Position numbers: made by a program. A DNA stretch of 63,869 nucleotides, counting the filler, from Anaerolineae bacterium (GTDB lineage: Bacteria > Chloroflexota > Anaerolineae > Epilineales > Epilineaceae), in assembly GCA_029262755.1 (NCBI GenBank). It is 7 parts of 7 records of this genome, joined end to end, with 100 filler letters (N's around TTAATTAATTAA, not from the genome) between each part and the next. Parts side by side here need not be neighbours in the genome. Positions count along the whole stretch, not along the records: positions 38,533 to 53,447 come from JAJCYU010000394.1; 6 more parts are not named here. One strand, written 5' to 3'. Numbering within the stretch: the first letter of the stretch is position 1; each line of letters starts with the position of its first letter. Positions 43,998 through 46,900 of this stretch are shown here, in pieces.

Positions 43998-46900
43998 AAT
44001 GATGCAGAAATTTCGAATGGACTCGGCCGCGGTCATCGCCGCCGCTCCTGCCTTGCGCTGCGCGAATGCGGTCTCGCGCCGTGGGGTGAATGCCAAATCT
44101 CGATGCCGTGCGTCGATCGGGAGCGTTCGCTTCGCACCCAGGGGAACGATGATGAATCGCCATTCCTGCGCGGAGGCGCTCTGCGGTATAGGACCGCTGC
44201 CGGCACACAATGCTTCGAGCCCGACCAACTGCCACCGGGCCGGGCTCGCGCACGGGTCATGATAGCACAGTGATAGATCGCTCCGAGGCGCGCAACACGG
44301 CGCCCGCTACCCCGTACAATGGCAGCGTGCGTCCGTTGAATCTCGTACGCACAGACCCCAACCGATTCGACGGGCGAAGGAGAAAACGCATGAACGAGCC
44401 AACGATGGTCGACGAAGGCAACCCGAACGTAGACGCGGCGAGCTTCGATCAGGACGCAGCCGCTAGCACCGATGCAGAGCCGGGCCGCGAGGCACCGCTA
44501 ACCAGCGAGTTGCGCCGACTCGGCGAGCGACTTGCCGGCGCGATTCGCGCTGCGGCAGGAACGCCGGAGGCTGAGGCGCTCAAGGGCGAGGTAGGCGACG
44601 GCATGCGCAAGTTGCGCGGCGAGCTCGACGGCGTACTGCGCCGCGGCCGAGGTGACAACGTGGCAGAGGAAGCAGGTGCTGCGGAATCCAGTTCGAGCGC
44701 CCCTGCCTCCGAGGGCAGTGAGGACGCCGATTCCGGCCCGACACGCGCCGCACGCGTCCAGGATACTGTTCGCAATGAGCTTGCCAGTGCGCTTCGGAGC
44801 CTGAACGGCGCATTGGACAAGCTCGCGGGAAGCCTTGCGACGCGGGCTGAAGAAGGCAATTCGGTCGCGGCGGACGATCCGGCGGACTCGGCGACGGACT
44901 CGCACCAGGCGTAGGATCGCCCTTCGCGCGAACGCCTAGCTGTTGCGCGATCGGGCGTTCATGGCACGTTCGCGAGTCGTCCTGTGCGCATGCAACAAGC
45001 GATGAGAACCCGGACACGACGGGGCCGGGCGGCAGCCCGGTCCCGTCGCGCGTCCCATGGCCTGACTGGCAAGGGACGGAACGGCGCAAGGGCGAGCTTC
45101 AAAGGGAAATGCCCTACCGTCCTCTGCGAGGGACCGCGCAACCGCGCACACGGCGCACCGCGTCCGACCTCGCGCGGCTCCCTGATTCTTCGTGCTGACT
45201 TAAGCGCCGCTCAGCGCGGTCCGATACCCCGCCGCGTGGGCGCCGCCGGCTCGAAACGAAGCGCGTCGCCCTCGAATCGCCGCTCAGCCAGCCCGCGATC
45301 GACAAGCCAATCGAGCCGGGCAACCACCCAACCCATCACGAGCGCGAGGCGCTCCGCTTCGCTCGGCAATCCTGTATGCATCGCGACCTCCCACGGTGAA
45401 CGAGCGCCCGCCACCAGGGCAGCACGGGTCGCGCGCACGCCGTCGCGTGCTTCGGCGAGACTCCGCGCCAGGCGGATGCGCGGCGCACGCACCGGTGGCC
45501 CATGGCCGGGCCAGGCGATATCGACTCTGACCTTGCCGATGCGCCGCCACGATGCGATCAACGACGCAAGCGTCTCGGGCCTACGGCCGTCAGGCCGTCG
45601 TGGCTCGAGTAGCGGGGGCGACGGGAGATGGCGCAACAAGAGGTCGCCCGCGATCATCACCGCTTCGCGCTCGACTTCGCCTGTAGGCCTGTCATCACCC
45701 GCATCGACGAGACAGACGTGGTCGGCGGCGTGTCCCGGCGTGTGAAGGACCTGCCACGTTCGGCCGCCCCACAACGGGCGCTGGCCGTCGGCAAGCGCCT
45801 GCAGTGCATCCGCCGGGATGCTCGCGCCGAGTGATTCGCGCGGGGTATTCAGCTCCAACCACGTGCGCGATAGATCGGCCGGCACCCCGCCGACCTCGGC
45901 GGCACGTTCGACCAGCCGGAGTCGCTGACGCCATGTACGCGGCCAATCGACGAGATCGGAGACACCCGCCTCGTGGACCAGCACGCGGGCTCCGCTCTCC
46001 TCCTGCAATCGCGCAGCCAGCCCGCAATGATCCACGTGCCCGTGCGTGAGCACGATGCGCTCGAGGTCTGCGATGCCACAGCCGGCGGCGGCAAGCCCGT
46101 CGCGCACACTTGCATAGGCCGCATCCGTATTTGGCCCCGTGTCCACCAGCGTGAGCGGCGCCCCTCTGAGCACATAGGCGTTGACAGGCCCGACCGCCAG
46201 CGGGGTCTGAATGACGATGCGACGCAAGGACGTTGCATCGTTCGCCGCAGCTAGCGTGGTCATGGGAGGTGGACGCTAGCCGGCGGCCGCGGACTCTTCC
46301 ACGTCTGCGCCGCGAACGAGCAGCCGCCAGGTGCCCTTCTGGGTGACCTCGTCGCGTTGGTTGACCAACTGAACGCCGAAGGTCACGATGCCCCCGCCCA
46401 TGCGCGGCGCTGGACGTACGTCTTCGGTCTCGATTCGGGCATGGATGGTGTCGCCCAACAGAACCGGCCGCCGAAACTTCCAGGAGAGGTCCAAGAATGC
46501 CATCGCGGTGCCTTCGATCCAGCCGAGGCGCCACGTCAATCCCGATGCGAAGGAGAGACCAAGCAAACCATGCGCGATACGCTCGCCATATTGCGTTTGG
46601 CGCGCAAACTCGGCGTCGGTATGGAGCGGATTGTAATCGCCGCTCAAGCCGGCGAACTGCATCACATCGGCTTCGGAGACGGTTCGTGCGGGACTCCGCA
46701 CGATCTCGCCCACGGTGAATTCTTCGTAGGTGCGACCCATAGCCGATTGGTTGCTCATCACGGTGGCCCCTTTTGGCGGTGGCGAGCACGCGCCTCGGCC
46801 CGCCGCGTCGGCGATTGTAACGTGCGCCCGCGATGCACGAAAATCCGCCGGCGCTGCACATTCCCCCTACAATGGCGGTTCGCTAGCCACCGGGCGGTCT

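Follow-up and report, generated by a model that had tools for sequence, protein, structure and literature searches.

A MaoC-type hotdog protein as the probable (3R)-hydroxyacyl-ACP dehydratase of FabZ-less fatty-acid synthesis in the class Anaerolineae

This study focused on a gap in a core pathway: which enzyme carries out the dehydration step of type II fatty-acid synthesis (FAS II) in an Anaerolineae bacterium of the family Epilineaceae (genome G000, 84.3% complete, 428 contigs), given that neither FabZ nor FabA can be recognised in its genome? To our knowledge, FabZ is regarded as universal and essential in the fatty-acid synthesis of bacteria, and it also counts as a target for drugs. At E<=10 the FabZ/FabA family profile PF07977 had no match in G000. 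An HMM built from nine Chloroflexota FabZ sequences, searched unfiltered against 56,755 six-frame ORFs of this genome, reached E 0.16 at best and did recover its positive controls. These searches bear out the absence reported in the initial annotation, and of the FAS II genes it had listed the following were likewise located: FabD and FabG on contig C88, ACP on C309, FabV on C84, and FabH and FabF on C141, which ends within PlsX and holds its C-terminal half, the other half being on C420. As ACP, FabD, FabH and FabF are all present, the ACP-based machinery is complete except for the dehydration step.

The gap had been described as a trait shared by the whole class. Within the family Epilineaceae it holds throughout (PF07977 in 0 of 17 genomes, 0 of 6 of high quality), and in the class it is nearly general, with matches at E<=1e-3 in only 6 of 151 Anaerolineae genomes (four of them above the cut-off; 5 of the 133 high-quality genomes) and none in the remaining 145. 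It is not confined to the class, however, since PF07977 matched 98 of 201 Chloroflexota genomes and 103 were without FabZ. FabF was found at E<=1e-30 in 149 of the 151 Anaerolineae genomes, and ACP in 40 of 41 genomes. For Anaerolineae or Chloroflexota, no publication was found that deals with the FabZ gap or with its filling by a MaoC protein; most subscription journals lie outside full-text search, hence the absence of such a report is unproven.

A candidate for the missing step lies in the window analysed here, a stretch of 63,869 nucleotides made up of seven joined parts of the genome. The coding sequence at 46276..46758 (minus strand, stop codon included) specifies P0001, a single-hotdog MaoC-type (R)-hydratase/dehydratase of 160 aa; the longest ORF begins one codon further upstream, at a GTG. 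MaoC_dehydratas (PF01575) matched residues 19-117 at E 2e-25 (89.2 bits against a cut-off of 27), and the gene was the sole PF01575 or HadB-like match in G000. The hydratase-2 motif has the wording G-D-x-N-P-x-H, with a catalytic Asp and a catalytic His. In P0001 it is S39-G-D41-Y-N-P-L-H46 (46621..46644, minus strand), which reads SGDYNPLH, so that translation, Pfam and motif read-out agree on the MaoC/PhaJ-type gene with intact motif that had been placed here. The Asp and His of this motif presumably have the roles given to them in the PhaJ and hydratase-2 literature. Together with G64, D41 and H46 are invariant in a 48-sequence alignment (A1). An AF2 model (pLDDT 92.5) showed the hotdog fold, and Foldseek aligned it with 1q6w, 4ffu, 1iq6 and 5cpg at TM 0.72-0.81.

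P0001 is not a member of the FabZ/FabA family (no match to PF07977 at E<=0.01), and it falls well below the cut-off of the NCBIfam HadB equivalog NF010246 (40.3 bits against 203), on which orthologues linked to fab genes reach 33-35 bits. Among solved structures, its nearest relatives are either uncharacterised (1q6w, 4ffu) or CoA-dependent hydratases (PhaJ 5cpg/1iq6, PaaZ 6jql). Homology can also be detected to the solved MaoC-type ACP dehydratases, HadAB/BC/BD and human HTD2, with HadB and HTD2 at a greater distance. An earlier figure of 35% identity to R. rubrum PhaJ could not be reproduced, the R. rubrum MaoC-like structure 3exz giving 26%. A look-up in a protein atlas returned generic MaoC clusters only, and scanning the surroundings of the gene for promoters and terminators gave nothing useful. 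A predicted complex of two P0001 chains (alignment A1) with the ACP of G000 (alignment A2), run without controls, ended in 'no answer', with a score of 0.01.

The best explanation of these data, and a probable one, is that P0001 is the housekeeping (3R)-hydroxyacyl-ACP dehydratase of FAS II in G000 and almost throughout the Anaerolineae, where a single-gene MaoC/hydratase-2 hotdog enzyme would have replaced the non-orthologous FabZ/FabA. FabZ/FabA catalyse the proposed reaction (EC 4.2.1.59) and likewise belong to the hotdog superfamily, but they form a separate family with another active-site arrangement. Two copies of P0001 would associate as a PhaJ-like homodimer; Asp41 and His46 of the motif would take water from the (3R)-hydroxyacyl thioester that FabG produces, and the resulting trans-2-enoyl-ACP would pass to the enoyl reductase, FabV in G000 and FabK in many relatives. 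By inference only, P0001 would be homodimeric, would use ACP and not CoA thioesters and would accept chains from C4 to C16-18. The support that was observed consists of the fold, the intact and invariant motif, the absence of FabZ, conservation across the class, co-absence with FAS II and, in several lineages, linkage to fab genes. Of these, conservation, co-absence and fab context strengthen the original suggestion that a MaoC hotdog protein is the best candidate for a FAS II without FabZ.

Orthologues of P0001 were found in 146 of the 151 Anaerolineae genomes at E<=1e-5 and in 143 at E<=2e-36, and 129 of the 133 high-quality genomes have one. In the order Epilineales the earlier count stands: at E<=1e-30, 32 of the 35 genomes have the orthologue, among them all 15 of high quality. 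Kin genomes enter these counts as non-independent observations. The statement that close orthologues occur only in genomes lacking FabZ applied to 27 of 29 genomes at E<=1e-33, but not to G223 and G312, in which FabZ and a strong orthologue are both present. A strong orthologue also accompanies FabZ-family genes in G074, G082 and G142; those of G074 and G082 lie outside the fab operon, in side clusters with KS, ACP and SDR genes.

Where FAS II is missing, the orthologue of P0001 is missing as well. Only three of the 151 genomes (G001, G004 and G047) lacked a FabF match close to the curated cut-off (they gave 1.2e-56 or nothing at E<=1e-30), and in all three a strong orthologue is missing. FabD is absent from G001, G004, G213 and G263, and in G047 it was found solely within a 1903-aa PKS frame. 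In the family f51, all five genomes, one of them a single contig and 99% complete, were without FabZ, PF01575 and FabF; the phylum sample of 201 genomes contained just six with neither FabZ nor PF01575, these five and G225. Part of the co-absence may reflect one missing contig and not loss, namely in G001 and G047; in relatives of these two, maoC is still part of the fab locus. Five genomes have FabF and no strong orthologue (G058, G069, G148, G089 and G113), and all of them are 91-95% complete and in 200-590 contigs.

In several lineages the orthologue lies in or beside the fab genes. In G116 the genes fabG, maoC and fabD follow one another on the same strand, with 4 bp of overlap, and fabF is divergent; in two further genomes of its genus (G085 and G002) fabG and maoC are adjacent on one strand. 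The arrangement in G027 is maoC> <fabF fabK> fabD> fabG> fabH>, that in G144 is <maoC accC> .. fabK fabD fabG fabF fabH, and in G131 and G028 maoC abuts fabH. A fab gene was present within 7 kb of the orthologue in 6 of the 49 families surveyed, where by our own arithmetic fewer than one family would be expected by chance, and in the other 43 families there was none within that distance. This linkage became visible only with wider flanks and coordinate matching; in 1.5-kb flanks of 30 orthologue loci, the sole recurring neighbour was a gene for an MBL-fold protein.

That neighbour is also present in G000, where, as the initial annotation had noted, the gene does not sit beside fab genes. P0001 is flanked there by a divergent cytochrome c gene and, 12 bp downstream, by a gene for an MBL-fold metallo-hydrolase of 350 aa (45211..46263, minus strand; Pfam Lactamase_B E 1.8e-21, with only sub-cut-off matches in NCBIfam). 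The two genes on the minus strand are probably co-transcribed, and an MBL-fold gene adjoins the orthologue at 9 loci in 8 families, although it may lie outside the function of P0001.

The isolated position in G000 suits a second reading, which was judged unlikely: P0001 would be nothing other than a CoA-level, PhaJ-like (R)-specific enoyl-CoA hydratase, feeding PHA synthesis or acting in beta-oxidation or fermentation of short acyl-CoAs, while an unrecognised enzyme performs the FAS II dehydration. The best characterised homologues of P0001 are indeed PhaJ1 (5cpg, E 1e-15), PhaJ (1iq6, E 3.7e-13) and the hydratase domain of PaaZ, and public databases name its relatives 'acyl dehydratase' or '3-hydroxybutyryl-CoA dehydratase'. 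PhaJ shares with P0001 the single-hotdog fold, the size class, the Asp/His motif and about 30% identity, and its chemistry is that proposed for P0001, reversed. PhaJ, however, acts on CoA esters and accompanies a PHA synthase. Class III PhaC was found in G000 and in all four sampled relatives of its family, and because of this presence in 5 of 5 genomes a PhaJ role is possible in that family, where P0001 could supply (R)-3-hydroxyacyl-CoA as a side activity. Across the class, PhaC (TIGR01836, E<=1e-10) was found in just 8 of 151 genomes, against 143-146 with the orthologue, and a PhaJ role, the rival put forward in the initial annotation, therefore fails to explain the class-wide conservation. 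It is also at odds with the loss of the orthologue where FabF or FabD is gone, with its place in or beside fab clusters in 6 families, with the lack of a detectable FabZ, and with the fab clusters examined, C141 of G000 included, none of which contained another hotdog gene.

A third possibility, assessed as improbable, keeps the dehydration within FAS II but assigns it to a very divergent FabZ or to another fold, leaving P0001 with some other lipid-related task close to FAS II, for instance in editing acyl-ACPs or as the isomerase or hydratase of a modified lipid. The absence of FabZ rests on profile searches, which a far-diverged hotdog protein could escape, and the MBL-fold neighbour, conserved in 8 families, could be a sign of some other function that the two genes share. 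Against this, G000 yielded nothing either to PF07977 at E<=10 or to the unfiltered lineage-specific HMM, and the surroundings of fabF-fabH in G012, G103, G099 and G114, which are complete or few-contig genomes, showed no other hotdog gene. The motif of P0001, moreover, is of the plain hydratase/dehydratase type. A type I PKS with PS-DH domains, encoded on C222 of G000, could be counted in favour of a different dehydratase, but PKS DH domains are known to work inside their own megasynthase. These domains were rejected as a general stand-in for FabZ, as they serve their own synthase. Two unannotated ORFs at the loci searched for another hotdog gene are Arg/Pro-rich frames, have no relatives and are probably spurious.

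A fourth reading would move the dehydration, or more of the cycle, to CoA thioesters in the archaeal manner, with P0001 as a dehydratase of the synthesis that does not depend on ACP. Its appeal is that the closest solved relative of P0001 is the Archaeoglobus MaoC-like protein 1q6w (E 7e-22) and that, according to a preprint (bioRxiv 10.1101/2024.07.05.601840), an archaeal MaoC-like (R)-3-hydroxyacyl dehydratase, MaoC-HCD (Saci_1085), takes the place of FabZ and uses CoA esters in fatty-acid synthesis. The archaeal enzyme works on CoA esters within a thiolase/DUF35 complex of an ACP-independent synthase, in organisms without ACP, whereas Anaerolineae keep ACP, FabD, FabH and FabF. The near-universal ACP and the position of maoC between fabG and fabD in G116 likewise count against a CoA-based cycle, which was considered very improbable.

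Dehydration by P0001 on ACP thioesters would have parallels elsewhere. HTD2/Htd2 is the mitochondrial 3-hydroxyacyl-thioester dehydratase 2 of an ACP-based type II system that also lacks FabZ. Like P0001 it is a MaoC-type hotdog protein, and its structure 3ir3 matched P0001 at E 1.5e-10, but it is eukaryotic and distant (22% identity in the Foldseek alignment), and common descent of the role is unsupported. Each Had enzyme is an obligate pairing of catalytic HadB with non-catalytic HadA, HadC or HadD, and elongates long meromycolate chains. HadAB, HadBC and HadBD are MaoC/hydratase-2 hotdog enzymes that dehydrate acyl-ACPs in the mycobacterial FAS II, which is without FabZ (PMC4491049). P0001 is homologous to HadB by sequence (E 1.9e-7) and similar by fold (TM 0.72), but it stands alone, without a HadA-like partner, and would have to serve de novo synthesis. 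No HadA-like ORF was found in G000 at E<=10, and at E<=1e-6 neither G000 nor any of the other 24 Anaerolineae of the phylum sample had one.

If P0001 has the role proposed here, core metabolism would offer an unambiguous example of non-orthologous gene displacement, extending over an entire class of bacteria that are abundant in the environment and in wastewater, and probably over half a phylum. Automated metabolic reconstructions, in which fatty-acid synthesis comes out as incomplete for these organisms, would lose that gap. Thousands of proteins that currently carry the label 'acyl dehydratase' or 'MaoC domain protein' would receive a specific name, and a simple, single-gene MaoC-type ACP dehydratase would become available for comparison with HadAB and HTD2.

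The phylum as a whole suggests a broader pattern. The chances seem roughly even that about half of the Chloroflexota run a housekeeping, ACP-based FAS II without FabZ/FabA by means of MaoC-type dehydratases, and that these come, as part of the same proposal, in two architectures: a stand-alone and presumably homodimeric form in Anaerolineae, represented by P0001, and a HadA/HadB-like heterodimer in FabZ-less genomes outside the class, including genomes of 1.4-1.9 Mb. Were this so, the Had-type solution, familiar from the elongation of meromycolates in mycobacteria, would be an ancient and widespread alternative for making bacterial lipids de novo. HadA/HadB-like gene pairs were present in 62 of the 103 Chloroflexota genomes without FabZ, against 8 of the 98 with it. 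The FabZ-less genomes that have no close orthologue of P0001, previously held as counter-evidence, retain that standing only in part, most of them being explained by such pairs. Among Chloroflexota without FabZ, the pairs belong to lineages other than Anaerolineae, and one of them is clustered with genes for ACP and a ketoacyl synthase (KAS).

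The most economical reading, and a fairly probable one, is that MaoC-type dehydratases have taken the place of FabZ in about half of the Chloroflexota, and that P0001, the 160-aa MaoC-type hotdog protein, is the Anaerolineae version, serving type II fatty-acid synthesis (FAS II). P0001 would act on ACP thioesters, and its ACP specificity, chain-length range and homodimeric state are all putative. The initial annotation had named it as a candidate stand-in for FabZ, a proposal that is supported by conservation, co-absence and fab linkage.

The genome under study (84.3% complete, 428 contigs) gave no match to the FabA/FabZ profile PF07977 at E<=10, and control genomes were matched by the same profile. 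An HMM trained on nine FabZ sequences from Chloroflexota detected the FabZ-family genes at other loci; its best E in this genome was 0.16 (unfiltered, 56,755 six-frame ORFs). A recount for the genome's own family reproduced the absence noted initially (0 of 17 genomes). In an Anaerolineae sample of 151 (150 genomes at >=90% completeness plus the one under study), PF07977 matched six at E<=1e-3, four of them over the cut-off; two matches lay within frames of more than 1000 aa, and none lay within a housekeeping fab locus. The FabA/FabZ-family matches of G074 (loci L002 and L008) and G082 (L004) were in side clusters, the former with SDR, ACP, FabA-like and KS genes, of which the FabA-like and KS genes are duplicated, and the latter with two SDR genes, a FabA-like gene and a PPTase gene. 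Such clusters resemble those for specialised lipids or polyenes more than housekeeping FAS II. Across the Chloroflexota the FabZ family was found in 98 of 201 genomes, its presence being nearly all-or-none within each taxonomic family. The gap that had been attributed to the class Anaerolineae is real, but it extends more widely, to 103 FabZ-less genomes of the 201.

Protein searches with P0001 matched 146 of the 151 Anaerolineae genomes at E<=1e-5 and 143 at E<=2e-36, with 40-65% full-length identity to the orthologues, and the reported retention in nearly every Epilineales genome was recovered (32/35 at E<=1e-30). FabF was present at E<=1e-30 in 149 of the 151. A FabF match near the curated cut-off was absent only from G001 and G004, which had none at E<=1e-30, and G047 (1.2e-56), and all three also lacked a strong orthologue of P0001. 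The joint absence in G001 and G047 may reflect one missing contig, since their relatives keep the gene within the fab locus. Five of the 148 FabF-bearing genomes were without a strong orthologue, all of them 91-95% complete and in 200-590 contigs.

In the phylum sample, FabZ and the MaoC family occurred together in 55 of the 201 genomes, FabZ only in 43, the MaoC family only in 97, and neither in six. Three genomes that carry an unpublished flag (G174, G301, G304) are counted in the phylum-wide figures here and below, and no claim depends on them alone; without them the four counts are 53, 43, 96 and 6 of 198. The six comprise G225, which has FabF and is 95% complete (the other seven sampled genomes of its family, f81, all have FabZ), and five Anaerolineae genomes of family f51 (G213, G263, G279, G311 and G327; 2.0-2.6 Mb, 97-100% complete, one in a single contig), none of which has FabZ, PF01575 (MaoC_dehydratas) or FabF. 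FabD was absent from the two f51 genomes tested, G213 and G263, where KAS III-like matches were weak only, and the f51 lineage may not synthesise fatty acids itself. Strong orthologues of P0001 (E<=1e-33) were found in 29 genomes of the phylum sample. The claim that these occur only in FabZ-less genomes holds for 27 but not for the remaining two, and the coexistence of orthologue and FabZ in a few genomes counts against the replacement.

The genomic positions of the orthologues were matched to those of FabF, and the loci were then read. In G116, fabG, the orthologue and fabD are consecutive on one strand, the stop codon of fabG overlaps the orthologue start, and fabF is divergent; in G085 and G002, of the same genus, fabG adjoins the orthologue on one strand. 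The orthologue of G027 is convergent with fabF at 160 bp, beside fabK-fabD-fabG-fabH, those of G131 and G028 abut fabH, and that of G144 is divergent from accC-..-fabK-fabD-fabG-fabF-fabH. Looser linkage was seen in G100 and G068 (2-3 kb from fabF-fabH), in G115 (accC beside the orthologue, fabF at 5 kb), in G084 and G046 (the same 5 kb spacing, from coordinates) and in G076 and G127 (fabF at 4-5 kb). In a survey of 49 families (at least one genome each; 7 kb read on either side, or less where the contig ended), a fab gene lay within 7 kb in six families and directly adjacent in four, against an arithmetical chance expectation of less than one family, given two to four fab loci per ~4 Mb genome. 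The fab-linked genes are true orthologues: each is the best match in its genome, has 44-54% identity to P0001 and keeps every invariant residue. Against the replacement stands the lack of fab linkage in the genome under study and in 43 of the 49 families. That another, unseen dehydratase does the step is improbable; no rival hotdog gene was present in any fab cluster examined. P0001 is the sole MaoC-type gene of its genome.

The P0001 gene, 160 codons and a stop, occupies window 46276-46758 (-); the longest ORF begins with a GTG one codon upstream. Its Pfam match to MaoC_dehydratas is strong (E 2e-25, 89 bits against a cut-off of 27), with FAS1_DH_region as a weak second. NCBIfam matches were all below cut-off (PaaZ hydratase domain, fused enoyl-CoA hydratase/phosphate acetyltransferase, RipB, and HadB, at 40 bits where 203 are needed). 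The translation carries SGDYNPLH at residues 39-46, which is the hydratase-2 motif with catalytic Asp and His, in roles as in PhaJ; D41, H46 and G64 are invariant across an alignment of 48 relatives. The AlphaFold2 model from that alignment (mean pLDDT 92.5) has a single hotdog fold. Its top two Foldseek matches, 1q6w (Archaeoglobus) and 4ffu, are MaoC-like and uncharacterised, followed by PaaZ, PhaJ (5cpg, 1iq6), HadB (4rlj and others) and human HTD2 (3ir3); a sequence-only search gave the same ranking. The nearest characterised relatives use CoA, and the genome's family has PhaC, both of which count for a purely CoA-level hydratase. This is nevertheless unlikely. A class III PHA synthase (TIGR01836, E<=1e-10, a profile that also matched the control Caulobacter vibrioides below its own cut-off) was found in only eight of the 151 genomes, five of them the genome under study and its family, and therefore PHA synthesis cannot explain class-wide conservation of the orthologue. 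PHA supply is a possible side role of P0001 within that family.

Displacement of FabZ seems to have taken another form outside the class. In three small FabZ-less genomes (G157, G169, G206), a gene of ~145 aa, matching FAS1_DH_region (PF13452) with the catalytic His lost, precedes the MaoC gene, a two-gene layout like HadA/HadB, with HadA-like (PF13452) then HadB-like (PF01575) (L071:7056-10252, of G157; L072:6866-7730; L073:6586-7436; L074:6725-7568). A second pair in G157 has the order ThiF, HadA-like, HadB-like, ACP, an unannotated opposite-strand ORF and KAS. Searching with a profile made from the four HadA-like sequences gave relatives in 70 of the 201 Chloroflexota genomes (62/103 FabZ-less, 8/98 FabZ-positive), none of them Anaerolineae; judging by position, many of the HadA-like genes are immediate neighbours of a MaoC gene. 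The initial annotation had held against the replacement those FabZ-less genomes in which no close orthologue occurs, an objection that largely falls away with these 62. Among the 103, the stand-alone type occurs in 27 and the Had-like type in 62, with two genomes carrying both. At the thresholds used 16 have neither: the five genomes without FAS II, G225, and a further ten in which a PF01575 gene is nonetheless present. The NCBIfam cut-offs for HadA and HadB are reached by neither type.

HadAB/BC/BD of mycobacteria and HTD2 of mitochondria, precedents by the titles of their solved entries, are MaoC-type ACP dehydratases. An archaeal MaoC dehydratase is a further precedent and acts on CoA esters (bioRxiv 10.1101/2024.07.05.601840). 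That the step in Anaerolineae belongs to a CoA-based synthesis is very unlikely; ACP was found in 40 of 41 genomes. No paper on the FabZ gap or a MaoC replacement was found in full-text searches of a collection that holds few subscription journals. Because MaoC-type ACP dehydratases are already known, what is new would be a stand-alone bacterial one for de novo FAS II, class-wide. Relatives of P0001 are publicly named only 'acyl dehydratase', 'dehydratase', 'MaoC/PaaZ C-terminal domain-containing protein' or '3-hydroxybutyryl-CoA dehydratase', and the best 80 species-collection loci are almost all from Chloroflexota or Anaerolineae-type MAGs, the exceptions being one 'uncultured bacterium' and one 'uncultured Enterobacteriaceae bacterium'.

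P0001 lies on contig C394 (window 38533-53447), one of several joined in the window. As stated initially, it is not beside fab genes; none was among the ORFs read at window 44000-49500. Upstream is a divergent cytochrome c gene, and 12 bp after P0001 on the same strand is a gene for a 350-aa MBL-fold hydrolase (window 45211-46263 (-)), with only sub-cut-off NCBIfam matches and no specific family assignment. At nine loci in eight families (this one, L123, L133, L134, L138, L147, L148, L152 and L160), the MaoC orthologue has an MBL-fold metallo-hydrolase gene immediately after it or abutting it. A flanking translation-GTPase-like ORF (window 42225-44228 (-)) reads as LepA/EF4-like by sequence, and window 47695-49746 (+) encodes a protein of 683 aa in which two VWA domains occur together with a linker rich in Pro and Thr. 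On another contig, window 12001-20000 has a lower G+C (0.58-0.59) than most of the window (0.64-0.71).

The rest of FAS II is present in this genome, with FabH and FabF on C141, FabD and FabG on C88, ACP on C309 and FabV at C84:6221-6928. An assembly break divides the single PlsX gene between the ends of two contigs (C141:25208-25669 and C420:1-477), which may account for its two entries in the initial annotation. The enoyl reductase varies, this genome having FabV and no FabK-like match, and several Anaerolineae fab clusters having a FabK-type (NMO family) gene (L077:7151-8134, L079:4193-5137). C222:8928-16058 (+) (L084:2929-10059) runs off the end of its contig and encodes a type I polyketide synthase of 2377 aa or more, in which Pfam recognises a KS, two acyltransferase stretches, PS-DH/PKS_DH_N dehydratase domains and two ACP-type stretches. 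A conserved Cys-rich protein (about 100-109 aa) that Pfam does not match is encoded close to fabF-fabH in G103 (L249:6118-6444 (+)), on the fabF-fabH contig here (C141:13473-13772), and within a few kb of the MaoC orthologue in G117 and G141 (L120:9795-10094; L159:176-397).
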